This document shows, one piece after another, positions 1,403-32,956 of a DNA stretch of 64,000 nt (position 1 is the first letter of the stretch; each line of letters opens with the position of its first letter). Origin of the DNA: Schmidtea polychroa. Taxonomy: Eukaryota. Position numbers and translations under genes: made by a program. Below the pieces are notes generated by a model, which saw nothing but the letters and a program-made list of their open reading frames with translations, ran no database searches and was not told where the DNA came from. The stretch spans positions 5,148,001 through 5,212,000 of the forward strand of contig CM097885.1 of NCBI GenBank assembly GCA_044892525.1, written 5' to 3'.

Positions 1403-4299
1403 TTAAATAGCTTAAATCAAATGCTGTATGTAGTTTTTGTATTTGTTAATATAGTTGTTTATCTGAGAAACGCTGTAATAACATTTGTCTAAACAATGAT
1501 TGGAGGGATTTCAAATTGCAATTAAAATGATTTTGGTTAATAATCTGCAGCGCTTTTTATGTAAACCTTGATGATGATTTCTTTTGATCAACGGCGTTTC
1601 AATTAAGCAGTGCCAATGATTTTAGGTGACGATTGACATGATTCTGAGGATTGTTGATGAGGGTAAATTGATTAATAGGAAATGTTAAATGATAATTGTT
1701 AACGGGTTTCTTTAAATAGTAATTGGTAACAATTTTCATCTAAATTATAATGGATAACGATTGATAAAGATGCTTGAGATTGTAATGGATCACGATTTGT
1801 AATCAATGATGATTTCCCGAAATATTGCTTGTAATGATTTCCGTGTAATGCTAGATAACGATTTGTGATAATGACCGAGGGTGACTTGTAATTATTATTA
1901 ATGAATAATGAGTTTCTAAGCATGAGTGGCACTGATTTTGTAAATGATAATTAATACATTTTTAACTACTGATGGATGATGATGCTTAAGTAACAATCAT
2001 GTCAATAAATACGCATGAGGAATTTTAAAGACCTATTGATAATAAATGTTTAGTAATGCCTGATTTCGATTTTTACTAATGAGAATAAAATTCTGATGCT
2101 AATCAAACTTATGATTGAAAGCCTCATCCTTTTCCCCAGGTCAGCTTTCTCTCGCATTGAACATTTGTCTGAATAACTCACAACATTAGTATACAAGATG
2201 GCTAAAGGAACAGCGTCTGTTCAATTGATTGCTATTTTTAGTAGAGAAGTTATTTGTGTATAAACCCTTATTTTTCTTTTTCAGCAACATGTCTAGACCA
2301 AACCCCTCCACATCAAGTTTAAAGCCGTGTTTATCCTGGGCGGACAAAAATGCTACCCTTAGCCAGAACCAAAAGGAGATTAAAGGACTATTAAAAATAA
2401 AAATCGATCATTATTAGAAATTTATAAAACTTATAAAGATAGAAATAACAGATAATAACAGATAATAATAATAATAATAATAATAATAATTCTCACCGGA
2501 TCAGAAACATTTGATAAGCATGCATCACAAAACCAACGATCAGTGCTGGAATCACTAGTATCATCGGACATGAACACGCAGTCAGATATCTTATAGCAGT
2601 CTATAAAGCAATCCAATAAACACATCATGCGTATCATCACATTTTATAATTTAGTTTTATTAGCATTTGTCCGTTATTCATTCAGCTTATCTAGTATCAT
2701 TTCACTTTCTCTTTTCTTCAATTGTCATTTTTCCTGTCTTTTAGAAGGATCTCGTTTAGCTATGATTATAAATTATCATATACAAAAATTGTTATTTGCA
2801 TTTAAATATAATTTTATATATAATATATTATGAATATTTAAACAATAGAAATCCAGAAATAATTTACTAAATTATATTTTGAACTAGAAAAGCACATAAA
2901 AATTGCATGTAGAGAAAATGAATCGGTAAAAAAATATTATTTATCGAAATCGTCATTTTCAATATGAGAATTTAAAAATTCGTTAAAGCATATAAATATG
3001 TATGTAGAAATATTCGAATAATCAAAGTTTCTGTCTTTTACAATAATTTTTTTAGACATTGAATTAATGACATTTAAAATGAAATTGAAAATAGACATAA
3101 AGTAGCATAAAACAACTCTTATGAAGCTTTGTGATCGATATAGAATTATGTTTACAAACAGCAAATGTCGAAGTTTCTATAACTGAGAGTCAGACTTAAC
3201 TGGTTCCTATATAAAATAACTATGACAAGACTTTTATAATAAACAATATTTAACAATAAAATTTACCGATTTAAAAATTTTAAGAATTTTTAAATTTGAT
3301 TTAAATATGATGCGTGTCACACCAGCAAATACATTCAATTTTTATTCCTGATATCTCCCTTTGAAATTTATTTCAACTAAGGACTGCAACATTAAAACTA
3401 ATGGTTCAAAAATATTACATTTCAAAATTGCAAACATAGAACTGAACTTTCGAACGAACTTCGTTGTAACAGATCTAACTCACCCAATTCTTTGAGTTGA
3501 TTTCCTAGCAAACTATAAATTTTTAAATTATTGGAAACAGACAAAAATCTACATTGCAGGAGAACCGACAGAAACTGGAGAAATAGCTGCCCCTGATAAA
3601 ACCAATTTTGTTCTTTTTGAGCCAGCACATAAGATAGAATTGACGTCTGCGTGGGAAGTATCTAGGAATGATGAGAAAGGAATTAAATGAGTTAATAATA
3701 ATGCTATAAATGATATTAATGATAAATGCTACTTTACGGGAAATAAGTGTTGGGCTAGAACTGATTTCTAACCCTAAAGTTAGGAATGAGACGAAATGTG
3801 TCATTACACAACACGCATACCCAGCATTAAGTATACATAAATAAAAATATATAAAACACCAAGTAAACAATGATAATAGAGAGATAATATACCTAAAAAT
3901 AAAAAACATCTGAATTAAAAATAAAATAAAACACGAGCAAGAAGTACTACACAAAAACGTACTCAAACATAACCGAAAGACATAAAACAACAAAAACAAA
4001 TTCGAATAAAGGCGATTAGTAAAAATTAAAAAAGAAAATTAAAGGAAATCTTTATAAAATCTTAAGTAAAGAAAATTATATCAAATTCTGAAATCAAACA
4101 AATGCATTTAATAAAAATTAAAATAATCGACATACACAACCGCCGCCTGCTCGCCCGCCCGCCCGCACGCCGCCCGCCCCGAAGGGGCTGGCGCGGTAGT
4201 TTGTAAATTTGGTTTAGTTTGAATATTATTATTTGAAACATAGTTTTATTATTTACAATATTCAAAGTATTAATAACAAAGGTAAAGAAATAAATGTTT

Positions 4300-4847
4300 A
4301 TTAAATGTATATAGTATGATACTCATTAATATACATTGAACATGCTTTACATTTGCGAACATTTGAATCATGGCATTTAGAACATACAATAACATGTCGG
4401 CAAGGTAAAAACAAAACCGATACTTGATTTTTTTACAAATGTAACAAGTTAAATACATTTTCCTACCATCATTGAGTTTTTTCGTTAGCTTATTTTCAAT
4501 CAAATCGGATTTCAATATCCATTCATAAATCAATCTCCTGGTTCCAGCCTTAAATCCATACAATTCCAAAAGCATTCATTCAATGAATCATTATCTACTA
4601 TTGCTTTGTCTAAATGCATCAAATAAATCGATAACTTCAAAATGCATTTATTGTAATTAAATAAATCAATCAAATATCCAATTGAGGAATGTTTGAAAAT
4701 TTCTAAAGTTTTTATGGTTTCCTTTTCAGTGAGAGTATCATAATTGTTCATAAAATTTTCAACGGTGCAGTTTAAAAACTTGAATGATCTCGTGATCATC
4801 AGTAATTTCTTAATAAATTTATGAAAATACTTATATTCTGCACACAT
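4300..4847 (-). pseudogene. Viral accessory protein with C-terminal IAP-like C3HC4 RING finger (frameshifted)
   Basis: Correcting one frameshift in an A-run at ~4430 gives CYICKKNQVSVLFLPCRHVIVCSKCHDSNVRKCKACSMYI; upstream ORF 4530-4847 probably belongs to the same gene through another frameshift. Confidence 0.75.
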
Positions 4848-5171
4848 TTATAAGATATACATTAAAACAAATCATTTATTAAACAAGAAAATAATTTAAA
4901 ATCAATAATGTTAGTCAAAAAATTGATGAACTCTTATTTAATCCCAATATTTAATAATATGAATTTCCTTGTTAATCGCTCAGAAACAATTCTTGAAGAT
5001 AATCATATCGATATGCCCGATGTGAAAAATTAATGAATTTATTGAAACTATTGAAAGTTTTAGGTATTGTATAAAAGTTTATCAAAACTATAATAAATCT
5101 TGGTAAATGTTGTTGCTTTTGAATAATAGTATAAACATAATTAGTTTTTTTCATTTTAATTATTTTCAACC

Positions 5172-5559
5172 ATGTCGGAAAAAGGTAAAATATGAATTTT
5201 TAAATGTTTATTAATTTTTTTTTTATTTAGCATATATCATCAACTTTTTGATTGAAAAATTAGAGGAAATATCTAATGTAAAAATTAGAGAATTTATGAA
5301 TGTTCCAGAGAAATTAAAATGGCCGTATTCAGACGATGAAATTAATGAAGATGATATGTCATATGAATCTGAAAATATTTCCCAGCAAGAAGATGAATAT
5401 ACTGATTTGCCTAGTGAAGAACTTAAGTCATGTATTGAGAATTCTACAACAGATAAATTACTAAATGAATCTAAACAAGAAGATGAATCTATTGTTTTTA
5501 CTACGTGTATTGATCATATTGTTGAAAATATAATGAAAAGAGATTGTATTGAAGATTAA
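5172..5559 (+). CDS. Small acidic hypothetical protein, two exons (5172-5184, 5231-5559)
   Basis: ATG TCG GAA AAA G|GTAAAA...TTTAG|CA TAT; removing a 46-bp intron gives in-frame MSEKAYIINFLIEKLEE... Confidence 0.55.
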
Positions 5560-5631
5560 TAAATTTAAAACTTTAGTTATTTTCAATGATTTAAAAACAC
5601 CAAAACACTAATAAAGATATATTAAATAAAT

Positions 5632-6230
5632 TTAACATGAACAATGTTCCTCTTCAAACTTATCTTCGGCTTTTATAATTTTCAAAATTGGTTTGGTTTG
5701 GTCTCTGCTTGCATTATACCCTTGAATTAATATGGTAACCATGCAGGTTATTTTGCTCATCTTACCACCATTGGGAATCATATCCAAATCGTTTCTAATG
5801 AACATATCCTCATCATCAAATTCAATATTTTCATTGATCCTCTGAAATAATTGTCCCAATAGCATCTTTTCGTGAAACTTGATTTTGGAAAGTCTTACAT
5901 TGTAGAAACATTTTTCCAGAGTTACAGGTTCTTAATAATAAATAATAATAATAAAATCCAAAATAATTTATAGAAACTTACCTTAAATGTATAGGAAATT
6001 GGACAATACAAATAATTTAGTTTGTATTGCATGAATTCGACTGGCTTTTTTGTATCCACTCGAACATTGACCAAGGTTTCCGTGGATAATGTCGTTTCTT
6101 TAAATTTCCTTTTTCTGAATTCCTGAGCGGCATCTGCATTTTTTCTCTTCAAAACTCCTAGATTAAAAAACTAATAAATGGGATATGTGTAAACGACAAC
6201 AAACCTGTAATTTGATTATCCGTTTGTAGT
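5632..6230 (-). CDS. Hypothetical multi-exon viral accessory ORF
   Basis: ORFs 5922-6152 and 5632-5865 with donor AAG|GTAAGT at ~5980 and CAG|GTTTGT...CTAG at ~6205-6160; no recognisable domain. Confidence 0.4.
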
Positions 6231-6424
6231 TATAATATTTAATAATTTGAACCAGATATTTATACTAATTTCATTGTAAACAAGTTTCAAGTGAGAGGCA
6301 TGAACAAAACGTGATCAACTAGTTCATTTTATGCTAAATAACAAAGTCTGAAATGATTTATTGTACACAAAGAAATATTATAGGTTAATTAAGGTTATCA
6401 CAAAACAAATATAATTATATTTTA

Positions 6425-6811
6425 TTACAACAATACATTTTTTCGCAATTCCACAAGTAATGCATGAATTATTTCTCGTTTCTGTAGATTTACAAAACAT
6501 GTACAACTATCATCCCCACAAGTATTCTGCATATTATTTTTACAAAAATCACAATTTTCAACATCATCGGTATAACATGTAATCGTAGCATGATCCATAT
6601 GAATTAAGTCTATTACATTTATTCCAGTTATTTCATAAATTTTGTAAAACACAACTTCTGGAGCACAATACATTAAGGAATTGTTCAAATTCGGATAAAA
6701 ATCTTCAATTTTATCAATCAAAATTTTTAGTATAGTTTCTAAACAAAAATCAGTAAATTTAAAATAAAAACAGTTACCTTCATGTTTAATCATTGTTGAA
6801 TAAATATTCAA
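6425..6811 (-). CDS. Hypothetical Cys-containing viral accessory protein
   Basis: 128-aa ORF directly downstream of the TBP-like gene, CxxC near the C-terminus. Confidence 0.4.
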   Translation of the reverse strand: MNIYSTMIKHEGNCFYFKFTDFCLETILKILIDKIEDFYPNLNNSLMYCAPEVVFYKIYEITGINVIDLIHMDHATITCYTDDVENCDFCKNNMQNTCGDDSCTCFVNLQKREIIHALLVELRKNVLL

Positions 6812-6856
6812 GCAAATCCTCGTTACTTATATTTGAAGAAATTGATAAAGATCCAA

Positions 6857-7297
6857 TCAAATCTTTACATCGTTTATAATTCCTTCAACAATAGTATGAA
6901 AATCTAAATTTTTAATACCTAGTACAACTATTTTACCACTTGAAAATATATTTACACATAGTGGATTATATTTTGTATAACGCAGAGCGGGAAATAATTC
7001 AGGCTCATATATACAATCTCAATCTAATAACTTTGCTAAATTATTCAAATTAATAGATTGTTCAACCTTGGTAGCTATAGTAAGACTTTGAACTTGAATA
7101 TCTTTGATATTATATTGCAAATTCTCGAATTCGATAGGCTTCTTACAACCTATTATACAACATTTACCATTTTTGAAAAATATAATAGTATATTTTCCAG
7201 TTTTGTCAACATATTGTTGTGGTTTATACTTGGGGAAATTCATCATACCAACAGTTTCCAAAGACACACGACCTCTATAATTAATATTTGTCAACAT
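6857..7297 (-). pseudogene. TATA-binding protein (TBP)-like gene carried by the Polinton-like element; one in-frame stop
   Basis: Reading through TGA at 7019-7021: repeat 1 IIFFKNGKCCIIGCK; repeat 2 INLNNLA...IYEPELFPALRYTKYNPLCVNIFSSGKIVVLGIK, matching TBP YEPELFPGLIYR...IFxSGKVVLTG; intronless. Confidence 0.85.
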
Positions 7298-7323
7298 TTC
7301 TACTGAATATTTATAAAAATCAA

Positions 7324-7325
<2 letters not shown>

Positions 7326-7385
<60 letters not shown>
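7326..7385. repeat. (TA)n microsatellite between the divergent TBP-like and ATPase genes
   Basis: About 30 TA units. Confidence 0.95.
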
Positions 7386-7388
<3 letters not shown>

Positions 7389-7460
7389 ATATTATAGAGT
7401 AATTAAATCAATTTATTCTTTACGATATAAACAAAATTAATTTTTAAATGAATATTAAAA

Positions 7461-8086
7461 ATGGAACTAAGAAATGATGCTGTATATCAAATAGTCGGAC
7501 CAAGTGGTAGAGGCAAAACTTGGTTTGTTTGCAAATTACTAAAATCACATTTATTTAAATCAAAATTTAACAAAAATTATTGGCATCGAGTGCTGATCAA
7601 GAACACGGATTGACTCAATCAAGTTTCTGTAAATTGAAAAATATGAAAATATTAGAGGGATTTGATAAAAATTGGTCCAGTAGACTAAAGAAGGGGGATG
7701 TCATAATTATTGATGACTTGTATCAAGAGGCTAATAAAGAAAAGAATTTCAATAATTTATTTACCAAAATCAGTAGACACGTTGGTGTAACTGTTATTTT
7801 TATAACTCAAAATATATTTCATCAAGGCGTTGCATATTGAACTCGTAATTTAAATGTTCAATATTTGGTTGTTTTTAAAAACGCTAGAGATGCAACAGTT
7901 ATAGATTTTCTTGCAAGACAAGCATATCCAAATAATCGTAATTTTCTGATTAATGCATTTCAAGATGCTACAAAACAACCTCATTGATATATATTTCTTG
8001 ATTTCACACAACAGTGTCCTGATGATTTAAGAGTGAGAACTGATATTTTCAATAAAGAAGGGTCAATGGTTTATAAACAAAGTTAA
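7461..8086 (+). pseudogene. Polinton A32/FtsK-like DNA packaging ATPase
   Basis: Walker A GPSGRGKT, Walker B VIIIDDLY, then LFTKISRH..VIFITQNIF..RNLNVQYLVVFKNARD..LARQAYP..AFQDATKQPH.YIFLDFTQ..LRVRTDIF; frameshift and stops. Confidence 0.92.
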
Positions 8087-8224
8087 AACCTGGATTGACT
8101 GATCATGTTTTTGAGAGCGAGAGTTAAAAATCTTAGAAACGATATTGAAAAAGAAAAAATTAGCGTTGCACCAAAAACTAGTTATACACCTCCTAAAATA
8201 CTTGTTACAGAAAACTTTCCATGA

Positions 8225-8607
8225 ATGAATCTCATTTCAAAAAATCCAAAATCTAAACCAAATAAAAAGCCTAAACAAGTAAAAACAATAACAAATCATC
8301 GTAGTTTTCCATTTTTTAATGCATTGTTAAAGGCACCGAGCATGAAAAGAATGACTATTTTGCAATCATTTCCAAATTTTGTTGTAGATGATTTACTTGA
8401 TATTATACTCAAAGTAGTAAAAGGCAAGACTATAATTAGCAAATCTGACAAAATTATTTTAAAAAGTACCAAAAACCTCTGTTGACGCTAGTAAATAATA
8501 GAAATCGTAAACAAATGAGAAAGATTATATATAAACAACAAGGAGGGCTTATTGCTGCATTAATACCATTGACATTATCATTATTAGGTGGAGCTAAAAT
8601 CGTCATA
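8225..8607 (+). pseudogene. Polinton small basic protein with QxGG motif and hydrophobic C-terminal helix
   Basis: After a frameshift at ~8465: RKIIYKQQGGLIAALIPLTLSLLGG, as in Polinton core/membrane-active small proteins. Confidence 0.65.
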
Positions 8608-8669
8608 AACAATGGGTGCTAATCCTTCATTACCTAATTTAAATTTTAATTTTAAATCTTCATGTTGTA

Positions 8670-9272
8670 ATGGAGAAGATATGGACGAATCCAAAAGACG
8701 AAGCAGGTTTCGGTGTAGTGGCAAAAATAAAGAAAAGAGTTCCGAATTCGAAAAAAGAAACCCAGAAGTGGTTATCAGATCAGCTTGCGTACAGTTTGAA
8801 CAAACCAATGCGGAAAAGATTTCCAAAAAGAGCCTATAAAACATTTGCAAATGGATTTGATGGAGATGATACCGTATTTGAAAATTAACAATGGAAATAA
8901 ATATATTTTAACATGTATTAATGTATTCAGCAGGTTTGCACGAGCAATACCAGTCAAGGCAAAATCTGTAGATGAAATGTCCAAGGCAATTAATATTTTA
9001 TTTAAAGATGGACATCCTAATAACTTGCAAACAGATTTGGGTATTATTATTATTATTATTATTAAAAACAATAAAATGATAATTTAAGCCTTTTGCTGCA
9101 AATAATGTATTTAATGAAAGAATTTTCGACTATATGATAGTCCTTGTCAATCTCAAGGACTATCGTATAGTCGAAAATTCTTTCATTAAATTCATTATTT
9201 GCAGCAAAAGGCTTAAATTATCATTTTATTGTTTTAAATAATAAATGCTGCTACCAAGCAATCATCATTTTA

Positions 9273-9342
<70 letters not shown>

Positions 9343-9937
9343 TTAGGTAAAGAATTCTACAATAGCAAAGTTAAGCAAATCCTCAATAAACTGATAATAA
9401 ATCACTACTCGGTACATTCTCAATACAAAGCTGCCAATGTTGAAAGATTTAATCGAACATTGAGAGATAGATTAAAGAAATTGTTCGTGCATCAAGGTAA
9501 TAAAAAATGGGTAAATGCTTTACCGAAAATAATAACAAGTTATAATCATTCATCACATCGAGGACTGAATGGATTGAGACCGGTTGATATTACATCGAAA
9601 ACATTCTATTCTAAGAAATCTGTAAAAATTGCAAAACCTTAATATAAAGTCGGTGACCATGTTAAAATTAGTAAAATTAGTGCATCACCATTTATTAAAT
9701 TTTTTCGTACAAATTGGAGTGATGAAGTCTTTGTAATTTCAAAAATAAATACTAAACAGAATCCTGTAATGTATGTCATCAAAGACAGTGATAATAATAT
9801 TGTACAAGGAAAATTTTATGAGCAGGAATTACAAGTCATTCCTCCTCCAAAAGTATTTAGAATTCAAAAAATATTGAAAACTAAAAAGGTCGGCAAGGAT
9901 AAACAATACTATGTCAAATGGCATGGTTATCAGTAAA
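8670..9937 (+). pseudogene. Polinton rve-type integrase with C-terminal chromodomain-like region
   Basis: QMDL..KYILTCINVFSRFARAIP..LQTDLG|KEFYNS..KAANVERFNRTLR..YNHSSHR..YKVGDHVKISK..NWSDEVF..GKFYEQELQ..YYVKWHGY; interrupted by insertion 9041-9346. Confidence 0.93.
9041..9346. repeat. Hairpin insertion (~88-bp inverted arms, 7-nt loop) flanked by (ATT)n; GT...AG bounded
   Basis: Arms 9058-9146 and 9154-9243; a related single arm lies at ~56258-56370, so it is a dispersed repeat. Confidence 0.9.
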
Positions 9938-9949
9938 AGACCTAGTAAA

Positions 9950-10100
9950 GTGAATTTTTATACTATTTTGCCGAGCAATAGTTGCTCATTAATTCATCCA
10001 GACAATCAAGCCAGTAAATTCATGGTCAATCTCCAGAATCCGATTTCTTTAAATGGGGACTGGGAAGTTGCACTGCAAGATTTTACATTCGTGTACAACT
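9950..10100 (+). pseudogene. Polinton minor capsid (penton) N-terminal fragment
   Basis: NFYTILPSNSC..HPDNQASKFMVNLQNPISLNGDWEVAL matches the FYxxLPSNS...WEVAL penton start. Confidence 0.85.
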
Positions 10101-10286
10101 TTACATTACTTTACATTTGTTTTGGCCCCAGATTTTGATTTGAATCAGAGTCAATTACCTCAAAATGGAAATTTACGATTATATATAAAGTTTGCAAAAG
10201 CTATTACAGAACCTGTGCATGTTATAATATATGGAGTATTTGAAAATGAAGTTCAAATTACTGCAAATAGAACCGTTCTGGTATAA
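10100..10286 (+). pseudogene. Polinton major capsid protein C-terminal fragment
   Basis: FTFVLAPD..GNLRLYIKFAKAITEPVHVIIYGVFENEVQITANRTV matches the Polinton MCP C-terminus. Confidence 0.8.
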
Positions 10287-10349
10287 ATGTATACAGAAAT
10301 ACAGAAGTTGTCATGGAGTAAGTTTTTTTTATACTGTTTAATTTATTAA

Positions 10350-10688
10350 AATAGTTCTGTTCAGGTTAATCGAATTGGAAAACAAATATTAGGAAATGAA
10401 TATTTAGGAGTTTTTCCTCTCGATAAAATACCATTTTTGAAAAATAATCAAGCCATAAACGTCAATACCCCTGCATCTCATCTCGGCGGAGAGCATTGGA
10501 TTGCAATCTATATGAAACCAGATAAGATACATGTATTCGATTCTATGGGTTTCTACTATCCTGCTTTATTGGTTTCGAAACTACAAACAATGGGCAAACC
10601 TATTGTATATAATAAAACAATGTATCAACACCCTTTAACTCGTACGTGCGGACAACATTGTTTAGGATGGATTATGTCTATTAAATAA
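10350..10688 (+). CDS. Adenain-like (adenoviral-type) cysteine protease; start uncertain or frameshifted
   Basis: YLGVFPLD..INVNT..GEHWIAI..VFDSMG..YQHPLTRTCGQHC: catalytic H, D, Q and C all present. Confidence 0.88.
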   Translation, partial: NSSVQVNRIGKQILGNEYLGVFPLDKIPFLKNNQAINVNTPASHLGGEHWIAIYMKPDKIHVFDSMGFYYPALLVSKLQTMGKPIVYNKTMYQHPLTRTCGQHCLGWIMSIK

Positions 10689-11104
10689 TAAATGTTTTTA
10701 TAAAAATATGTTTTTATTATTTTATAATTATTATTATGTTTTATTATTATTATTATTATTATTATTATGTTTTATTATTTTTAAAAATGTTTTATATTAT
10801 TAGAATATTAAAAAATTCAGTCATGCACGGTACATGATCCGTACATGATTAATAGTAATTGTAATGGTAATAATAATAATAATAAATTATTTTGTACATT
10901 ATTCTAAGACTGACCGGATTCGCAAGTAATTAGAATAAATATTTGTTTAAAATGTCAATTTTACAGGTTTATATAAACTTATTATTTATATAAGTTCGGA
11001 AAGTTGTCTCTGAAAAATCAAAAACCAAAAATGAACAATACAATGAACAATTCCAGTAATATTTTACGTGCTCTCTTAACGAGCAGCAATTGAAATTATT
11101 AGAC

Positions 11105-16213: not shown

Positions 16214-17432
16214 TTATGCACTAATTGCTTCTTCAGCTCCAGTTGAAAAAACTCCGCACAATAAAGTCATACTACGTTTAAGTTCTGGTTTGCCAATTTT
16301 CTCCCACAAATTCTTGCTCATGACTGTTACTAATGCTCCAGAATCCAATAACATCTCATAAATCCCATAACACATGTCATCCCATGAAAAGGGATACTGT
16401 GTAACCAGGAAAGAACTGCTCGCCGTACATGAATACGTCATGCATTTTAGAGAATATCTGTACGGGAAAAAATTTATAATTCGCATCGACCACAAGGCAT
16501 TGGTTTTCATGAACACTACAAAAACCCCAATCAGTCCGCAGTTCCAAACATGGTTAGCTAACCTGTCGGAATATGATTTTGAACCAAAAAATCGGAAAGG
16601 CGAAGAACACTCGAATGCAGATGGACTATCAACATTAAAAAGTATTGTTTGCACCCAGTGTCAAACAAGACATGAAGATGCTAAGGAAGGAAAATCAAAG
16701 ATTAGATACATATACTATCCAAAGAACAGAAGCTATGGAAAAAGTATGGGAACAACAACAAAAGGACATTCGGTTTCGAGAGCTGCGAGAGATATTGGAA
16801 AATGGATGAACACGGGAGAAAAAGAATTGATTTACTTTTAACGTAAAAAATACACAAATTGATGGAGGATTAATAACAGTAGAAAAGAACAAAAATATCT
16901 TAATGTTAGTCCCAGAAACATTTGCAGGCCTGTTAACAACAACGCTACATGAAGAACTATAAGAGATCTTATTACAGCAACATTGGCAGGCGGATGTGAA
17001 GAGAGAAACTGGCACAGACTTCTACCCAGAATAGAGTTCACTATAAATAGCAGTCGACAAAGTGCTACAGGTTTATCACCATTTGAGATAATTTATGGAC
17101 GGAGTGTTAACCTACACTCTAACGTGAAACAAGCCGAGATATCAAGAAGCGAAAGAATGGAAGACGCGAGATTTAACTCGAGTAAAACCGCAGACACTAT
17201 GAGAGCTATGGATAAGACAAAGAGGGGCACTCGTGTTTTCGAGGTGGGGGAGGAGGTACTCGTATGTAAAGACCCGCAGAACGGGCACAAGGATGGTATG
17301 CAATACTATGGTCCATATAAAATCGCCAGATTTCTAATACCTCATCGAGTCGAAATATATTCACAAGAAGGAACGAAAGAAAGAAGAATCGAGTGGCTGA
17401 AGAAGTGGGAAAAATCTTAAGAAGGGCAGAGT
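16214..17432 (+). mobile_element. Gypsy LTR retrotransposon remnant: RNase H-integrase on +, inverted protease fragment on -
   Basis: YCVTRKELLAV..YLYGKKFIIRIDHKAL..GEEHSNADGLS (RH); INSSRQSATGLSPFEIIYG, YYGPYKI (GPY/F); purine tract AAGAAGGGCAGAG at ~17419; LLDSGA protease on - at 16214-16370. Confidence 0.92.
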
Positions 17433-17688
17433 TAGATATCTTTTTGTTTAAATAATTTGGAATTGGCGGTTTTTGTGAATTAATTAAAAACTTGTTATTT
17501 ATAAATTCTTTGATTAAATATATATATTGTTAGTTTCAAGATTTTTGTTGCGAAATTTAAAGATGGATTTAACTATATTATACCTGAAAATTAATAAAAT
17601 GTATTATTTATTTATTTTTTTAAATTGACTATAAAAGTAGTTGTTTAAATAAATTATATTATTTTACAATTTAAAATTTAAATTCAAA

Positions 17689-19634
17689 ATGGCATTTTAC
17701 AATGGATCATTTCAACCAAAATACTCAAAATATCTGGAAGTAGATAAAGATTCAATAAATAACATTTTTAAAGAACTTTATAATGGATCCAAAACTTTGA
17801 AGCGTCTGTATTGAACAATATGTATTATTTATTTTTTTTAAATTGACTATAAAAGTAGTTGTTTAAATAAATTATATTATTTTAGAATTTAAAATTTAAA
17901 TTCAAAATGGCCATTTTTAAACCATCATTTAAACCAAAATACTCAAAATACCTGGAAATAGATAAAGATTCAATAAATAACATTTTTAAAGAACTTTCTA
18001 ATGGATCCAAAACTTTGAAGCGTCTGTATTGAACAATATCAAAGAAAGATATTTAGATAAATTAATTTATGTAAGTGATTTTATCAAAGTAATTGCATAT
18101 AGTTATTATTTAGACATATTCTGGTTTATCTTGTCTTGCATTAAACCCATTACATTATATTACTATCATATAAAGACCAATTTCATTTAGCTCATGCCAC
18201 TTAAAGGATAAAAAAATATATTCGAAAAAGAAGTCAATGACTTAATTACAAAAATTAAAGATCTGGAAGAGGAAGGGGAAACATTTCGCATGGTAAAAGT
18301 GACAGTAAATGCAAATTTCTATCATTTCCTGATGGTATTTTAAATGATTTTTTAACCACCATGCAGAGATCAAAAAACATTAGGAACAGTATGGAAAGAA
18401 AATTAGAATTGAAGTATGACAAAGAAATTGAAAAGCTAAAAATGCAAAGTTTACAACTAAAAACTGAGAAATCCGGACTCGAGAATGAGCTGGACATTTT
18501 GGAGCTTCAAAAATTAAACGCAGAAAATGCTGTAAGTTGTTATTATTTTGTCAGTTTCTATTATTTTCTGATGGTATTTCAATTGATTTTTTAACCACCA
18601 GGCGGAGATCAAAAACATTAGGAACAGTATTAAAAGAAAATTAGAATTGAAGTATATAATTTGAATAAATGAAGAAACAACTGGAGCAAGATGTAAAAAT
18701 AATGGAAGAAGAAAATTATATGAATGAGATTTTAATAGATAGATTTAAGGTAAATTTCTATACAAATTAAATTAAATAAATGATTTTTTAATCACTAGGA
18801 TGAGAAAACAGGTGTATTAGTTGCTGCCACCAGCCTCGGGTGGGCAACTGCGCTATTGATCACATGCCATTGATCAAAAAATTTAATCACGCAAAAGTGC
18901 ATTGTCCACGCCAGGACTGCACCAAAACTGTACGTGCCTCAGGGCTGGAGAGGCACCCTGTGCCTGTCCCGCAAAGGGAGCATACCCCGACAGAGGAACA
19001 AGTAGTCATTGTCCAGCCAGAGGAGACGAATGACCCGACAGTAGCACCAGGTGGTAATCAAGCGGCGCTTCAAGCTATACAACAAATGAGAAACGAAATG
19101 AATGACAGGCTGGATGCAATGGAGCAACAAATAAATGGCATTGCGGCTGCCCAAAACGAAATGGCAGCTGCCCAACAAGAAATAATTGGCAGGCTTGATG
19201 CTGTTGAGACGAGGGTCGGTGCGCTGGAGCATCCCCAGTAGGCCCTCAGCCAATAAGGTATTTAATAATTATTATTATTATTTAAAGCAATAAAGTGAAA
19301 CATTCAACAAAAATTGCAAAATCAAATAGAAACAAAGTATTTGAAGGAATTTGAAGAAAAACAAATTCAATACACAAAACTTGAATCTCAACTAATATTA
19401 ACACAGAATGAGAATTCAAAAATACAAAATGCTGTAAGTTATTTTGTGATTTTATTGTTTTTTCTTATATTTTATTTTTATTCAATTTTTTTACAGCTAA
19501 AAAATTCGATGCAAAAAGCAGAAGATTTTCAATTACAACTGCACGCAAAAGATCTTGCAATAGAGGAACGGGAACATAAAATTGAATGTTTAACAGATAA
19601 GTTAAATAGCCAAACAAGTCAGCAAACGAGGTGA
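17689..19634 (+). pseudogene. Multi-exon coiled-coil gene remnant with internal tandem duplications
   Basis: Short GT-AG introns between E/K/Q-rich exons (18361-18531, 19314-19433, 19497-19630); ~198-bp duplication at 17610-18040; stops present. Confidence 0.5.
18820..19241 (+). CDS. GC-rich ORF fragment: TRAF-type zinc-finger-like motif plus coiled coil
   Basis: AKVHCPRQDCTKTVRASGLERH followed by heptad-rich AALQAIQQMRNEMNDRLDAMEQQI...LDAVETRVGALE; clear GC step from the flanks. Confidence 0.5.
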
Positions 19635-19878
19635 GTAAAATTTAGTTAAAATTTATTTAATAGGTTAAAAAATTAGATAAATAAGAGGTAGATAAAAAAT
19701 AAAAAGATAAGATATAGGTAGATAAATAAAAAGTTTATAAATAAATATCTAAAATATCAAAATAAATAAAATAATGAGGCTCGGTAAGTAGTATTTGGTA
19801 TGATTGCCACTACCTGTATCGTAAAAAAACTTATCGTAATATGGGAATTATATCGTGAAAATTCTGTATCGTAAGAAG

Positions 19879-20929
19879 TGTTAGGGATAGGCCTGGAGCC
19901 TTAGTGACAAAATAAATAAAAAATTACTATAATTAGTAATACCATAAATAAAAATAATAAAGTGTTACCGAAAATAAAAGATAAGTTTTTTTAATTACTA
20001 TTAATAGAATTAAGTAATATATAGGAATATTTGTGAATACTATTACTATATATAGTAATTATATAAGTACTATTAATATATTAAATAAGTAAAAAATAAT
20101 ATAACTACCGTTTCAAAACCAAAACGAGAGAGAGAAAAATTGGAGACGATAATCTTGAGGACGATAAAAACTGTGATTGAAAGTTAAATTAACGAATAGA
20201 TTGGAGAGAATAATAACCAGAAAAGTAGTTAATTGATCCATCGAAGAAACGTGATTAAAGAATCACCGAGATAAATTAATTCCAAGAATTTGACCACAAT
20301 CGCAAGGTTTCGGATCAAATTTGAATATTTTAGTCTCACAAGGCGAAATTCCGGCTCAAATTACGAATTAATTATCGCAGAAACTTTTCTATAAATTACG
20401 GACGAGAATTGACCAGAGGAAAAGGAAAACTTGAAAGAGAAATTGAAACAGATTAGTGACAACAGAAGGAGCAGTTAAATTCAGGCAAGGTAAAAGATTT
20501 AATTAATTGTGTTGGGTAAGGATAAATTATTATCCTTGGGAAGGGAATTAAATAAAGCGAACACAAAGTACAGATAGCGACTTTCGTGTTACCTGGTAGC
20601 CCCAAAATCAACCCTCTTGCTTTTCCACTATCTTTCTAGTTTATTTAGCGATCGTTGTGCTACACAGGAGCCATCGATTTCTTGCAGGCTGTTGGTAAAC
20701 AGTAAGGATTAATAAATCCGTTTACTTGTACTCTTTGAACATATTTTATAAATATCTGTTGTAAATTATTAAATACATTTTTATAAAAGAGAAAGGCGTT
20801 TGTTGTTAATTCAGTGATACGCAACCACATTAAATAACTTATTTATATTTATTTTTATTTATTTATCTTAATTAAGTTATTGGAGTCTTTTGTGTTAAGA
20901 TCTGTAGTCCCCGTTTTTCGATCTTAACA
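19879..20929. mobile_element. Solo LTR (1051 bp) with 4-bp TSD GAAG
   Basis: GAAG|TGTTAGGG...GATCTTAACA|GAAG; TGTTA/TAACA termini. Confidence 0.88.
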
Positions 20930-21154
20930 GAAGCAATGTTAATTAATATCGTAATTTAATTTCTTCTTCTATATTGTAACAAGAAATATGGAGACAAAAA
21001 AACATTCATGTAACTCAAAGTAACAGTATTTTGATATATTAATAAAGACCATATAGTCTGAGTTTATCCGGCTAAATATTCTGTCCCCCTATGGGTATTG
21101 CTAGCAAGGGTACTGGTCACATTCAACATGTCGCAAGGGTATATTAATCAATTA

Positions 21155-22560
21155 ATCGAAAAGAAATAGAACCATATCATCTAATGAAGAACTATCAAGT
21201 AGTAAAAGGAGACAAACACAATCTCCATCAACTCAGAGAAACAAATTGAAAATGAAAGGAGGAGGCGCACCAACAGACCCAGATGTGCCAATACCAAACT
21301 TCGACTTTACTCTGAATAATGAGTATAATATTGAATGTAACCACTGTAAAGAAAAAGACGTATATAAGACCAAAAAATACGATGATGCTTGGAACCATAT
21401 GATAAATAAGCATAAAAATGGATTAAAAAATAAGGATGTATTAAAAGATAAATCCCAGCCAATGATCAAGTGTGTACAATGTGAAAAACCATTCAAAGGA
21501 AATGAATGCCAAAATCATGCAAAAATCCACACAGATCGTGATATTAAAAACAAACGAATTGGATCAACAATAGACCACAGTGACATTCCATCACAGAACA
21601 GCTGACCATCACTGGCTGCAATGGAGACTTACATCAAAATTCTCCTGGAACAAAACGAATCAATAAATAAAAACATCAAATACATTGAACCAAGACTGGC
21701 AAATTTGCTGATCAATCGAAATTTGAGAACATTTCATAATGAAATCAAGATAGACTCCCTGATTGGATGGGAACTAATAGTCTGGCTTATTCACTGGAAC
21801 AACTGCCATTGGATTGTTTACCTGGCTAACTATGAGGATAAAACCTCTATTATCCTGGACTCTGACAATCAAATGACACCATTGCAAAAGTGTAATATAA
21901 AAGACAGACTAGATAAATTCCTGGAAAATACAGTGGAAGAAAGAACTATCTTTAAATCAATAGAAAACAGACTAATTCCTCAACAATCAAATGACTATGA
22001 TTGTGGAACATACGTCCTACAATTCATTGAGGACTTTGTGAATAAACCTGAACGACTGAATTATCAGACCCCAGACTCAATCAAAATTAGAAACATAATT
22101 GGGAAGCAAATTATGGAAGAATTGAAAGATACCAAGAAGAATACACCAAAGAAGTCAAATAAAGAAATAGACGAATTAATTCTCAAATTGAAGTTACTAC
22201 AGATAGACATAGATTCGGTACTTCAATGGTTCACGAACAAATATAATGAATCAATCCCTAAACAAAAGAACAAAAGAGGTGGAAAGATCAACATCTCCAA
22301 ATGCTCATATCAAATACAAAGATTATTTGCTATAGCTCCAAAAAGAGCAATAAAGGAAATATATAAAAACGAGTCAGCCCCAGCGGACCTTCCCAAAAGC
22401 ATCTTAGATGCTTATTTCATAAAAGAAATTCCAGATATCCGGGAATGATTCGGCACCAGGAGAAGATAACATCCCTATCAGACAGTGGAAGAAATGGATG
22501 GAGAGTGGAGTACTCCTGGACATCTTCAATTATATAAAAAGGACACATATTAATGCGCAA
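21155..22560 (+). mobile_element. NeSL/LIN-type non-LTR retrotransposon 5' fragment (5'-deleted copy)
   Basis: Two CCHH zinc fingers (CNHC..HMINKH; CVQC..HAKIH) and Ulp1/C48 protease (HWIVY..ILDSD..PQQSNDYDCG); truncated before RT. Confidence 0.85.
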
Positions 22561-29884: not shown

Positions 29885-32345
29885 TTGCGCATTAATATGT
29901 GTCCTTTTTATATAATTGAAGATGTCCAGGAGTACTCCACTCTCCATCCATTTCTTCCACTGTCTGATAGGGATGTTATCTTCTCCTGGTGCCGAATCAT
30001 TCCCGGATATCTGGAATTTCTTTTATGAAATAAGCATCTAAGATGCTTTTGGGAAGGTCCGCTGGGGCTGACTCGTTTTTATATATTTCCTTTATTGCTC
30101 TTTTTGGAGCTATAGCAAATAATCTTTGTATTTGATATGAGCATTTGGAGATGTTGATCTTTCCACCTCTTTTGTTCTTTTGTTTAGGGATTGATTCATT
30201 ATATTTGTTCGTGAACCATTGAAGTACCGAATCTATGTCTATCTGTAGTAACTTCAATTTGAGAATTAATTCGTCTATTTCTTTATTTGACTTCTTTGGT
30301 GTATTCTTCTTGGTATCTTTCAATTCTTCCATAATTTGCTTCCCAATTATGTTTCTAATTTTGATTGAGTCTGGGGTCTGATAATTCAGTCGTTCAGGTT
30401 TATTCACAAAGTCCTCAATGAATTGTAGGACGTATGTTCCACAATCATAGTCATTTGATTGTTGAGGAATTAGTCTGTTTTCTATTGATTTAAAGATAGT
30501 TCTTTCTTCCACTGTATTTTCCAGGAATTTATCTAGTCTGTCTTTTATATTACACTTTTGCAATGGTGTCATTTGATTGTCAGAGTCCAGGATAATAGAG
30601 GTTTTATCCTCATAGTTAGCCAGGTAAACAATCCAATGGCAGTTGTTCCAGTGAATAAGCCAGACTATTAGTTCCCATCCAATCAGGGAGTCTATCTTGA
30701 TTTCATTATGAAATGTTCTCAAATTTCGATTGATCAGCAAATTTGCCAGTCTTGGTTCAATGTATTTGATGTTTTTATTTATTGATTCGTTTTGTTCCAG
30801 GAGAATTTTGATGTAAGTCTCCATTGCAGCCAGTGATGGTCAGCTGTTCTGTGATGGAATGTCACTGTGGTCTATTGTTGTTGATCCAATTCGTTTGTTT
30901 TTAATATCACGATCTGTGTGGATTTTTGCATGATTTTGGCATTCATTTCCTTTGAATGGTTTTTCACATTGTACACACTTGATCATTGGCTGGGATTTAT
31001 CTTTTAATACATCCTTATTTTTTAATCCATTTTTATGCTTATTTATCATATGGTTCCAAGCATCATCGTATTTTTTGGTCTTATATACGTCTTTTTCTTT
31101 ACAGTGGTTACATTCAATATTATACTCATTATTCAGAGTAAAGTCGAAGTCTGGTATTGGCACATCTGGGTCTGTTGGTGCGCCTCCTCCTTTCATTTTC
31201 AATTTGTTTCTCTGAGTTGATGGAGATTGTGTTTGTCTCCTTTTACTACTTGATAGTTCTTCATTAGATGATATGGTTCTATTTCTTTTCGATAATTTTG
31301 TGTTTTTGTCTATTTTTGGCTCCTTAAAGATACCATACACTGCTGTAGTATTATCTTCAGCAATAATTCCCTTTGGGGTATGACTTTTTTCTATAATTTC
31401 TTTTACAGTTTCTGTTGGAGATACTTCTATAGTTTCAGGGATAATCTCACTCTGTATGCTGCTTTCTGTTTCTATCAATACAACGGACTCTTTTTCCTTG
31501 GGTTCATTGGGTATTGATTGTTTTTCTCCGAACAGAGTTATGCATTTCTGAAACTTGAATTGGCGACTTATTCCAACCGTTGTCCTTTGGAAAAAGAATT
31601 GGAAAAAATTCGCAACTAAAGTTTGCTCTTCTTGATCCTTTTATTAATCTGTTTATCTTCAGGTTGTCTTTTTCGCTAACACTCTGGTTTTTCGTCCTAG
31701 GCTTGAGATTTGTTAACCAGCTTTCCGGTACCGTGAAATATTTAGCAAAATTTGACATGTCAAATTTTGATTCTTTGAATTCATTCATGTTATCTTTAAT
31801 GTACCTGCTTACAATGTTGTAAGTTATAAGCAAGGCATCATTGTTCTTGAAATTATATTTGTGAGTAGCCAGTAGAAATTGTTTCACCTCCACAAAGGTT
31901 TCATTCGATATATTCATTTTCACATAATTCTCGAAGTTGCTCTTCAGGAAAATTTTTCTTTTTGATTTGTATTTTTTGGGTTTGAATGTATTGACATCGA
32001 CCGTCTCATTGTTGTCATTGTTGTCAGTCCATTCAATTGGATTTCTTTTAATATTTTTATAATTTTTCGATTTTGGCTTTGATTTGGTTTTTTCAATTTT
32101 TTCCTCTTTATGATTTAAGATTGGGAATTCCTTTTCAAGTGTTTCATTGTCTAGAATTGAAAGAGCATTGTAGCGATTTGGTGGAGTAACCATTTTTTGG
32201 AGATGTTCAGTGTCAGAGATATCATCCAGGTCAACATTCTGATTGTTCTGCGAAGCAGAACGAGTCTTCACGGAGGGCCCCGAAGAATGGCTACTCAAAA
32301 CGGTTTTTATTGTTAACTTTGAAAGAGACTGCTGGTAAATGTTTG
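29885..32345 (-). mobile_element. NeSL/LIN-type non-LTR retrotransposon 5' portion (fuller copy): N-terminal region, 2 CCHH fingers, Ulp1 protease
   Basis: Consecutive ORFs 31504-32298, 30840-31478 and 29997-30824 form one ORF broken by stops/frameshift; contains the PNRYNALS motif; no RT. Confidence 0.88.
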
Positions 32346-32956
32346 AATAACAACAACAAGAAGCAAGTTATAACAGAGAAAACAAAAAAACCCGCATTAT
32401 AAAACATACTTAACATTCAAAGTTGCTAACGCCCTAAATAATGATAATTATAAAGCATTTTCATTCGAATTATCAAAAAAAAATTGGAATACCAAAGGGG
32501 GACCGTACCTGTATCGTAATATGACTTCTTACCTATATCGTAAAGATAGAAATGGACCAATATCGTAAAAGTTAAAAATGGACCTATATCGTAATCCAGG
32601 TTTAATCTGTATATTATAAAATAGAGATAGAGATAATTTATTTTTCAAACATTCAATAATTTAAATGACAGGTTTAATGATAAAGTCAATTTTTTCACCA
32701 CAAGATGGACAAACAGGGATGTCTGAATTTCTAACTGATTAATATACCCTTGCGACATGTTGAATGTGACCAGTACCCTTGCTAGCAATACCCATAGGGG
32801 GACAGAATATTTAGCCGGATAAACTCAGACTATATGGTCTTTATTAATATATCAAAATACTGTTACTTTGAGTTACATGAATGTTTTTTTGTCTCCATAT
32901 TTCTTGTTACAATATAGAAGAAGAAATTAAATTACGATATTAATTAACATTGCTTC

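Follow-up and report, generated by a model that had tools for sequence, protein, structure and literature searches.

A 64,000-nt stretch of the Schmidtea polychroa genome (GCA_044892525.1, contig CM097885.1, positions 5,148,001 to 5,212,000; hereafter the window, in whose numbering the coordinates below are given) raises the question whether a Maverick/Polinton element can carry a TBP gene of its own and what such a gene may do. To our knowledge, TBP is not among the canonical Polinton genes. The initial annotation of the window had described an intronless TBP-like ORF and quoted two of its peptides, YEPELFPALRY and IFSSGKIVVLG; both are present on the minus strand, from ~7009 and ~6946, respectively. 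The ORF runs from an ATG at 7297 to a stop at 6858 (146 codons, minus strand) and contains an in-frame TGA at codon 93 (7021-7019). With the TGA read through as X, the translation matched PF00352 at E=1.8e-18 (66.6 bits, cut-off 22.9), and the best solved-structure match was 1mp9, a TBP (E=1.6e-14), which bore out the TBP-like identity. As judged by sequence comparison, the PF00352 match is far beyond chance. A frame break at codon 146 removes the last ~25 residues found in other copies, and substitutions affect R47 and M49 (numbering of the full-length copy), both of which are invariant in the family. We concluded that a genuine gene of the element, which we call mini-TBP, is represented at 6858..7297 by a pseudogene, and that this copy is dead and without function.

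The head-to-head arrangement with a packaging ATPase across ~160 bp was found as described: the ATPase ATG lies at 7461 and the divergent spacer (7298..7460) measures 163 bp. This spacer holds (TA)30 at 7325-7384, where the full-length copy has ~8 repeats, and a TATAAAC box (7426..7432, plus strand) 35 nt before the ATPase ATG; a box at the same ATPase-proximal position is also present in the full-length copy and in sister families. The ATPase gene (7461..8083, plus strand; Pox_A32/FtsK-HerA type, Walker A GPSGRGKT) has one frame break near 7589. Further along the plus strand, a TATAAAC box within the last ATPase codons (8072..8078) stands 33 nt before an orf177 homologue with a frame break (8105..8595), and a CATAAAC box (8604..8610) stands 66 nt before the ATG of an integrase gene (8670..9933; rve core and C-terminal chromodomain) that is split into three pieces and carries a low-complexity insert at ~9043-9342. 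These are followed on the same strand by a 59-residue fragment of orf355 (residues 9-67 only; 9923..10099), the last 63 of the 407 residues of a capsid-like gene (10095..10283) and an adenain-like cysteine protease ORF (10350..10688). On the other side of the TBP pseudogene are an open orf122 homologue, 99% identical to the element (6428..6793, minus strand), the start of which overlaps the TBP gene tail in full-length copies, an orf77 homologue (5635..5865, minus strand), an orf121 homologue (5197..5556, plus strand) with a TATAAAC box ~61 nt upstream (5130-5136), and the remnant of a RING-finger gene in three frame pieces (4304..4847, minus strand). The orf177, orf355, capsid-like, orf77, orf121 and RING-finger assignments were made by tblastn, which also recovered the integrase, capsid piece and protease, present and broken beside the TBP/ATPase pair, as had been claimed.

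The extent originally given to the locus (6857-10688) is too short, since blastn similarity between the full-length copy and the window covers 4080-10810. An inner left-end segment (4080..4910) corresponds to element positions 905-1744 at 96% identity and is joined in the window to the opposite arm of the element; the outer ~900 bp of the terminal inverted repeat is absent. Element positions 7700-9961 are deleted, including the rest of orf355, orf120 and most of the capsid-like gene, and at the other edge element similarity stops at 10810 with the pPolB arm missing (blastn). The window copy thus has an incomplete Maverick gene set, with an arm, an end and an internal stretch gone and several frame breaks. 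We concluded that window 4080-10810 holds what is left of a 16.2-kb Maverick/Polinton (adintovirus-like) after decay, rearrangement and internal deletion.

The Polinton identity proposed for the cluster was established on a full-length copy, which has DNA_pol_B_2, Pox_A32 and Peptidase_C5 domains, a probable integrase (rve plus chromo) and 1.2-kb TIRs. Two copies align over 16,241 bp at 98.7% identity, with inverted ends of ~1.19 kb. In the Pfam search of the full-length copy, pPolB matched DNA_pol_B_2 at 1.4e-23 over the first 686 of its 858 residues, the ATPase matched Pox_A32 at 6.9e-7 (29.4 bits, cut-off 22.8), the protease matched Peptidase_C5 at 7.2e-7 (29.5 bits, cut-off 21.3), the RING ORF matched zf-C3HC4_3 at 4.8e-10 and TBP matched PF00352 at 3.5e-17 (62.5 bits, cut-off 22.9). 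The integrase matches were below their cut-offs (rve E 3e-5, 24.6 bits, cut-off 32.6; chromo 3.1e-4); in metagenome loci, integrase homologues of 33-69% identity adjoin the same genes. Neither the 407-aa nor the 355-aa ORF gave a Pfam match; both are kept in order in metagenome relatives, and the label "capsid-like" was assigned to them from gene position only. No RNA polymerase was detected by Pfam among the ORFs of the full-length element. The carrier shares with Maverick/Polintons and adintoviruses their long inverted ends and defining gene set, with a probable integrase and putative capsid genes.

Other copies of the element also carry the TBP gene. The first look at the genome gave thousands of candidate matches at 98-99% identity (4025 in all), among which 150 were scored, so that the genome holds at least 150 TBP copies; all 150 are 96-100% identical and 148 are without a stop. 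At least 1.4 kb of the ATPase-side flank is present in 28 of 30 fetched genomic TBP copies. We concluded that this Maverick/Polinton is young and present in very high copy number. The genome also holds two sister families with diverged TBPs (54% and 57% identity) in the same head-to-head position. In metagenome loci, which are mutually related and were drawn from a limited set of samples, a Maverick gene adjoins TBP in 37/80 cases, and in 30/41 of those offering 1.5 kb of room or more. Depending on the locus, the mini-TBP gene precedes the ATPase, diverges from it or follows the protease. The mini-TBP family is old and conserved, and in many lineages its genes are physically linked to those of Mavericks.

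Is the gene nevertheless a retrocopy or capture of host TBP at a single locus, as an intronless and compact ORF might suggest? In a tree of mini-TBPs, host TBP-like loci and canonical eukaryotic TBP, the element protein did not cluster with host TBP and belonged to a clade of its own with 70 rows (SH-aLRT 99; branch length, 0.82), while five host TBP-like loci grouped with canonical eukaryotic TBP (SH-aLRT 99). The clade proteins are ~145-170 aa long and mini-TBP is 32% identical to canonical TBP over 109 aa. Together with the 150 scored copies, the sister families and the 80 metagenome loci, the tree and this low identity refute a one-off host retrocopy, to which we give practically no chance. 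On these comparisons, we regard the TBP gene as not a host-derived one-off.

At E<=1e-30, the family profile recovered 59 clusters (50% identity level). Among 32 proteins that share 32-63% identity, 21 columns are invariant, including E98, P99, E100, F102, P103, F118 and F41. AlphaFold2, run from the 32-sequence alignment, returned a TBP saddle (pLDDT 95.1, pTM 0.83), and all 44 Foldseek PDB matches at E<=0.001 were TBPs (167-178 columns, TM 0.57-0.67). The ORF had been called a two-repeat TBP: two repeats are indeed present, but the first is shortened, the long helix H2 being absent. In the model, strands 45-51 and 65-77 of repeat 1 are connected without a long helix; a 13-residue gap relative to canonical TBP falls precisely at helix H2 of this repeat, and the shortening is common to all 32 aligned family members. 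Complete repeats, each with a long H2 on the convex side, are thus not what mini-TBP has, while the beta-saddle and the YEPELFP and F.SGK motifs are kept. Cellular TBPs (eukaryotic TBP/TRF/TLF and archaeal TBP) share with mini-TBP the fold, the family (PF00352) and the second-repeat motifs YEPELFP and F.SGK(I/V)V. They differ in that their core is ~180 aa compared with 145-170 aa for mini-TBP with its H2-less first repeat, in that canonical QN is QS in mini-TBP, and in that the (C/L)TGAK strands read RIMGCK and V(V/I)LGIK; unlike cellular TBP, mini-TBP has a mobile, virus-like element as its carrier and groups in a separate clade. Canonical TBP kinks DNA with two pairs of phenylalanines, as seen in TBP-DNA structures. 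We take F41, F102, F118 and the position after KPxQ in the first repeat to be the four corresponding sites; the last of these varies (Y/V/I/F/C), so that under this tentative mapping only three of the four would be kept.

We then looked upstream of the element genes. An oriented 8-bp box, YATAAACR, lies at a short, near-fixed distance 5' of the ATPase (median 36 nt). Upstream regions were de-duplicated at 70% identity, with metagenome gene starts predicted by tblastn and the nearest ATG, and ATAAAC was scored within 150 nt of the ATG. It was found before the ATPase in 22/22 metagenome clusters, the capsid-like gene in 10/10, orf120 in 6/6, orf355 in 8/9, integrase in 12/16 and protease in 3/4, with a background of 9.1% of random windows. 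Before the TBP gene it occurred in 5/61, i.e., at background frequency, and before pPolB in 0/4, which carries little weight. De novo, ATAAACA was the most enriched 7-mer (53/80 upstream regions, 3.8 expected). The base 5' of the box is Y in 60/67 and the base 3' is R in 62/67; the reverse complement was found in 0/67. The link between mini-TBP and the box is one of co-occurrence only; no Mavericks without a TBP gene were found for comparison. Some boxes overlap conserved upstream codons (VYKQ at the end of the ATPase, KQYY of the chromodomain), so coding constraint may add to their conservation. YATAAAC is not over-represented in the 64-kb window as a whole (44 observed, 40 expected); the full-length copy has a modest excess (14 vs. 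7.2, sd 2.7).

Because element genes are packed end to start and UAUAAA and CAUAAA are known weak poly(A) hexamers, the boxes could be variant poly(A) signals of the upstream genes; one contig, from a run that we guess to be RNA, ends in an A-run 44 nt past the ATPase stop. This reading is very improbable. Where TBP is divergent and no co-oriented gene lies upstream, the box keeps its spacing of 33-35 nt to the ATPase ATG (5/5 layouts) and thus cannot be a poly(A) signal of the TBP gene. Its spacing to the downstream ATG is constant, whereas the spacer that follows the TBP gene varies between ~85 and 900 nt across metagenome loci; several boxes lie 40-100 nt within the upstream coding region, ahead of the stop, and poly(A) signals do not include the invariant C that follows the hexamer. 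The enrichment of ATAAACA, which presumably fits the forkhead core RYAAAYA, also invites the reading that the box is an initiator or a site for a host sequence-specific factor such as forkhead, unrelated to mini-TBP. We consider this unlikely, if less so than the poly(A) reading, since the preferred forkhead site GTAAACA occurs in 2/67 regions compared with 50/67 for ATAAACA. The lack of reverse boxes, the pyrimidine preceding the box and an ATPase distance locked at 32-50 nt in 23/26 loci speak against it as well; strict orientation and spacing better suit a core-promoter element than an activator site.

A stronger contender, though still an improbable one, is that the boxes are ordinary TATA boxes read by host TBP/TFIID, with mini-TBP acting as a competitor or decoy (host shut-off, repression escape) or serving another polymerase. 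YATAAACR departs from TATAWAWR only at position 7 and, in some cases, position 1, and host TBP may by itself bind TATAAAC well enough. The YEPELFP stirrup motif is kept, so mini-TBP could titrate TBP partners, and the absence of H2 would suit a dominant-negative form. However, C occupies position 7 in 67/67 boxes and position 1 in 24/67, neither being favored by the canonical consensus, and the TBP gene's own promoters carry canonical TATAWAWR (27/58, background 11%). The initiator-like TCAYWWT precedes the TBP gene in 41/58 (background 21%), and both motifs at 24-40 nt spacing occur in 13/58 (background 1.4%). With canonical TATAWAWR before the TBP gene and YATAAACR before the late genes, the elements distinguish two box types.

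Could mini-TBP instead be a structural DNA-binding or DNA-bending protein used in replication, integration or packaging, for example at the inverted ends? Its gene adjoins the packaging ATPase in most layouts, and the full-length copy (16,173 bp) has a TATAAAC ~190-215 nt in from either end, at positions 215 and 15985. Yet the invariant motifs belong to the TBP stirrup and the DNA-kinking strand, with no new surface, the gene position varies, and the box before each late gene would be left unexplained; we rate this possibility as low, marginally below that of a host factor.

The explanation that we favor, with somewhat more confidence than doubt, is a two-step programme in which mini-TBP reads the YATAAACR boxes. 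The mini-TBP gene would be transcribed by host TBP/TFIID; its product would bind the YATAAACR boxes of the packaging, integration and virion genes, where it would bring in TFIIB and RNA polymerase II of the host. Host TBP regulators and partners grip the helix H2 surface, and H2 loss may release mini-TBP from those that do. The suggestion in the initial annotation that the protein may redirect host polymerase to viral promoters finds indirect support in a conserved, oriented and position-locked box. More broadly, the Maverick/adintovirus-like lineage of animals, i.e., mid-size, polymerase-II-dependent dsDNA viruses, may possess a self-contained two-tier switch, made of a helix-stripped TBP with YATAAACR before every packaging, integration and virion gene, and a TBP gene on a host-type TATA and initiator. 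We put this wider proposal forward tentatively, as possible but not quite probable.

Giant viruses carry their own RNA polymerase, which sets them apart from the Maverick, with none among its ORFs. Virus-encoded TBP-fold proteins are found in these Nucleocytoviricota (Heterosigma akashiwo virus, Terrestrivirus, the asfarvirus B263R homologue) as in the element, and giant-virus TBP-like proteins were the best Foldseek BFVD matches of mini-TBP (E 2e-8 to 1e-6), but at 10-21% identity and with poor superposition. Beta- and gamma-herpesviruses encode late-gene TBP mimics (KSHV ORF24, EBV BcRF1, HCMV UL87) that use a TATT-type late box (PMC7498053, PMC4893493, PMC12529657). The working likeness that we propose is that of a nuclear DNA virus without its own RNA polymerase, using a TBP-like protein and a variant TATA box to express late genes by host RNA polymerase II. 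The herpesvirus mimics are large and act in a six-protein complex, whereas mini-TBP is a small true PF00352 member without known partner genes. Foldseek BFVD revealed no homology to ORF24/UL87/BcRF1, giving only weak herpesvirus matches at E ~1e-3 (ranid herpesvirus 2 ORF75, 7.8e-4; elephant herpesvirus U58, 1.3e-3). The resemblance is best viewed as a functional analogy without sequence kinship. For Mavericks, a figure legend in Starrett et al. (2021; PMC8502044; section 3.4, on non-animal datasets) labels a "TBP" gene, and that section gives the label without analysis of the protein, its spread or a promoter; apart from this one legend label, we found no published analysis of a Maverick mini-TBP. 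Polintons are reported in PMC8532177 as piRNA-repressed and reactivated on differentiation, presumably in the same species as the present genome.

Mavericks/Polintons are not known to carry an RNA polymerase. A basal factor encoded by the virus and paired with a box of its own would account for the timing of virion genes in a 16-kb element, its escape from host promoter control and its high activity in one genome. If true, the hypothesis would represent an independent invention of the herpesvirus late-gene strategy, built from a true TBP paralogue, and a natural orthogonal pair of TBP and TATA box. Mini-TBP would then offer a compact TBP of natural origin that has changed its DNA specificity and lost a regulatory surface, useful for the study of TBP evolution and for orthogonal promoters.

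The TBP-like ORF of the window runs on the minus strand from an ATG at 7297 to a stop codon at 6858 (146 codons, in-frame TGA at codon 93) and contains both peptides quoted in the initial annotation. With X placed at the internal stop, it matched the Pfam family PF00352 (TBP) at E=1.8e-18 (66.6 bits, cut-off 22.9), in agreement with the family membership proposed there; solved TBP chains were also matched, the top one being an archaeal TBP (1.6e-14). The ATPase starts at 7461 on the opposite strand and therefore the two genes lie head-to-head, as had been described, with a measured spacer of 163 bp. Inside the spacer is a (TA)30 run at 7325-7384, which has ∼8 units in the full-length copy of the carrier element. 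On the 3' side of the ATPase the window holds orf177, an integrase in three pieces, a 59-residue fragment of orf355, the last 63 residues only of a capsid-like gene (named by position only) and an adenain-like protease ORF; the claimed company of integrase, capsid remnant and protease was found in broken form. Compared with the full-length copy, the window TBP has 4 changes in 145 residues; two hit family-invariant positions and one is the stop. In addition, a frame break removes the last ∼25 residues. Judged by these lesions, the window TBP is a dead copy. Rfam and tRNA scans of the whole window detected no RNA genes.

The window's genome is 781 Mb in size, includes four very large contigs and has ∼30% G+C. 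A protein search of this genome gave 150 scored TBP matches (from 4025 first-look candidates), all 96-100% identical, and 148 of the 150 were stop-free. For delimitation of the element, a 30-kb region surrounding each of two copies was extracted; the two aligned over 16,241 bp at 98.7% identity, with inverted ends of ∼1.19 kb. The full-length copy (16,173 bp) encodes a RING-finger protein, a protein-primed PolB of 858 aa (DNA_pol_B_2, 1.4e-23), an ORF of 425 aa, an adenain-like protease (Peptidase_C5, 7e-7; positions 4558-4896, minus strand, of the full-length copy L032), a 407-aa capsid-like ORF, orf120 and orf355, an integrase (rve plus chromodomain), orf177 and a Pox_A32-type ATPase. Encoded on the opposite strand are a TBP-family protein of 170 aa (PF00352, 3.5e-17) and, after it, small ORFs. 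The protease lies in an open frame without an ATG, and splicing may supply its start. On sequence grounds the carrier is an adintovirus-type Maverick/Polinton. Only a fragment of it is left in the window, at 4080-10810, in which the PolB arm is missing, element positions 7700-9961 are deleted and the outer end is absent. At 4080-4910 a piece of the left inner end, including the RING-finger gene, is fused in direct orientation to the right-arm end; this junction points either to recombination or to a variant in which the inverted ends are longer. Elsewhere in the window, a large inverted duplication (16371-22448 on the plus strand and 29997-37528 on the minus strand) carries mirrored ORFs with equal Pfam scores, namely RT_RNaseH at 16371-16841 and 37064-37528, a weak resemblance to HSBP1 at 18804-19241 and 34658-35095, and a Ulp1-type Peptidase_C48 ORF of 280 aa at 21606-22448 and 29997-30839.

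The ATPase-side flank extended for at least 1.4 kb in 28 of 30 fetched TBP copies; one exception is truncated 190 nt into the ATPase and the other is unrelated past the (TA) run. By its genomic context the TBP gene belongs to the element. In three copies, including that of the window, the TBP side is ∼97% identical to the full-length copy and the ATPase side only ∼87%. Two sister Maverick families of the same genome (G000) carry a TBP gene head-to-head at the same place with an identity of only 54 and 57%. Identities of 58-92% were obtained for their ATPase, integrase and orf355. In both of them, L124 (G000:C1:89109500-89117000) and L125 (G000:C1:85464500-85472000), TBP has diverged far more than its neighbours ATPase, orf355 and orf120, whose identity reaches 92-97% in L125. 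The shift of identity across the spacer and the divergence in the sister families suggest that the TBP arm was swapped as a module, with the breakpoint in the spacer, or else that it evolved faster. Replacement, silent and stop differences among the 30 genomic TBP copies numbered 6, 10 and 1, respectively; the count of 6 versus 10 was discarded as evidence because the copies had been picked by best protein score, a sampling that biases against replacements. The position of the (TA) run coincides with the subfamily switch from ∼97 to ∼87%, and element families may recombine preferentially at this microsatellite.

Next, we considered whether the ORF could be a retrocopy of host TBP. A PF00352 search of the genome recovered one canonical intron-bearing host TBP gene (124 bits) and further host-type loci, i.e., two paralogues with introns plus intronless 215-aa and 166-aa forms. 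Intronless two-repeat TBP ORFs of 215, 166 and 212 aa (64-85 bits per repeat) were located at G000:C2:182637078-182637596, G000:C2:132285308-132285757 and G000:C1:195751380-195751880 and are candidate TLF/TRF-type paralogues or retrocopies. The phylogeny with host TBPs that the initial annotation had proposed was built by a quick IQ-TREE run (LG+G4) on 83 rows: the element protein, 68 hand-picked single-stretch family members, 9 two-stretch TBPs and 5 host ORFs or exons, with giant-virus TBPs left out and the deep branching order not fixed. Host rows joined canonical eukaryotic TBP (SH-aLRT 99), and two of the three intronless ORFs were placed with host/canonical TBP on long branches. The element protein was positioned apart from the host rows, within a 70-row clade (SH-aLRT 99, branch 0.82), and is 32% identical to canonical TBP over 109 residues. 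The 150 scored copies genome-wide and the separate clade in the tree rule out a host retrocopy.

A word-seeded search yielded 107 relatives of 33-94% identity, mostly 144-164 aa in length. In a profile search against 1.84 billion representative sequences, E<=1e-30 was reached by 59 clusters and E<=1e-10 by 747. The 10 proteins looked up, from nine clusters, are unnamed in NCBI and UniRef. An alignment of 32 members contains 21 invariant columns, including N-terminal NINY, GKCR.MG, YEPE.FP and NP.C.N.F.SG. AlphaFold2 modeling of this alignment, also among the proposed checks, gave the ten-stranded TBP saddle with a pLDDT of 95.1. The model predicts a sole long helix and a repeat 1 without helix H2; the missing H2 matches a 13-residue gap relative to canonical TBP. 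All 44 Foldseek matches in the PDB at E<=0.001 were TBPs. Giant-virus TBPs matched more weakly. We concluded that the family is a conserved viral mini-TBP.

The linkage of mini-TBP to Maverick genes was examined in 80 metagenome loci retained from 181 confirmed relatives. In 37 of the 80, TBP was flanked by one or more homologues of the Maverick genes of the element; where at least 1.5 kb of room was available on one side (n=41), a Maverick gene was present in 30 loci and absent in 11. One complete array reads TBP, ATPase, orf177, integrase, orf355, orf120, capsid-like gene and protease, with PolB on the opposite strand. TBP directly precedes a co-oriented ATPase in 23 loci, follows the protease in 8, and is divergent from the ATPase in 2 loci plus the three families of the window's genome. 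Among IMG/VR viral contigs, the TBP alignment found a single weak locus (33% identity, second repeat only) on the 44.7-kb contig L043, and the ATPase, alone or as a 13-sequence alignment, gave no match.

The full-length copy contains 14 occurrences of TATAAAC versus 7.2 expected (sd 2.7), and 10 of the 14 are on the late-gene strand, 33-145 nt 5' of the ATG of ATPase, orf177, integrase, orf120, the capsid-like gene and orf121. For the metagenome loci, gene starts were predicted, upstream regions more than 70% alike were removed and ATAAAC was scored within 150 nt of the ATG. The motif was present upstream of ATPase in 22/22 clusters, capsid-like gene in 10/10, orf120 in 6/6, orf355 in 8/9, integrase in 12/16 and protease in 3/4; the corresponding figures were 5/61 for TBP and 0/4 for PolB (predicted starts), and 9.1% in random windows. 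An unbiased 7-mer count found ATAAACA in 53 of 80 regions (3.8 expected). The box consensus is YATAAACR, with Y before in 60 and R after in 62 of 67 upstream regions; none of the 67 has the reversed box and only 2 have GTAAACA in its place. The median distance from the ATPase ATG to the box is 36 nt. In divergent-TBP layouts the box is kept 33-35 nt before the ATPase (5/5), which speaks against a role as poly(A) signal for the TBP gene. Some of the boxes run into conserved codons. In the whole window YATAAAC was counted 44 times versus 40 expected; the signal is one of position and orientation, not of frequency. We concluded that a conserved, oriented and position-locked element, in sequence a variant TATA box, precedes the packaging, integration and virion genes.

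Upstream of the TBP genes themselves, canonical TATAWAWR was found in 27/58 (background 11%), initiator-like TCAYWWT in 41/58 (background 21%), and the two spaced 24-40 nt apart in 13/58 (background 1.4%). These motifs indicate that the predicted promoter of the mini-TBP gene differs from the box type and is host-like. Among the listed sequencing runs that contain the sequence, none is registered as RNA. Contigs from four runs, whose library kind is only guessed to be RNA and which therefore do not bear on transcription either way, span the TBP region. At positions 714 and 3197 of L015, the region of the full-length copy, contigs from a single run (library type unknown) terminate in untemplated stretches of A/T, 44 nt beyond the stop codon of the ATPase (minus strand) and 26 nt beyond that of orf77 (plus strand); these ends are possible poly(A) sites. 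We also observed an open frame of 301-310 aa with a weak match to the TFIIB cyclin repeat (PF00382, 38-44 bits); at least 13 copies cluster at G000:C3:38.2-39.1 Mb and G000:C1:23.8-24.2 Mb, and they may represent amplification of a TFIIB-like gene or be carried as cargo by a different repeat. By ORF reading the best host PF00382 locus looks like a BRF-type gene, and the other loci are intron-split.

Within open-access papers and bioRxiv preprints, TBP in a Polinton, Maverick or adintovirus was found only as a figure-legend label 'TBP' (Starrett et al., 2021, and its preprint), and the supplement text of that paper contains neither 'TBP' nor 'TATA'. A Cymbomonas paper places TBP genes in mirusvirus-like elements, not in Polintons. 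Polintons are reported to be de-repressed on knock-down of the piRNA pathway (PMC8532177). Functionally, the nearest counterpart would be the TBP mimic that beta- and gamma-herpesviruses pair with a variant box at late genes (PMC7498053, PMC4893493).

At DNA-facing positions the mini-TBP has QS for the QN of canonical TBP, and M and L for two T of (C/L)TGAK. Given the biochemistry of TBP, these replacements would alter base preference, TFIIB binding would be retained through the invariant YEPELFP stirrup, and without helix H2 the protein would lack a surface that host regulators use. We propose that the mini-TBP would read the box and recruit host polymerase II, and that the outcome would be an early-to-late switch.
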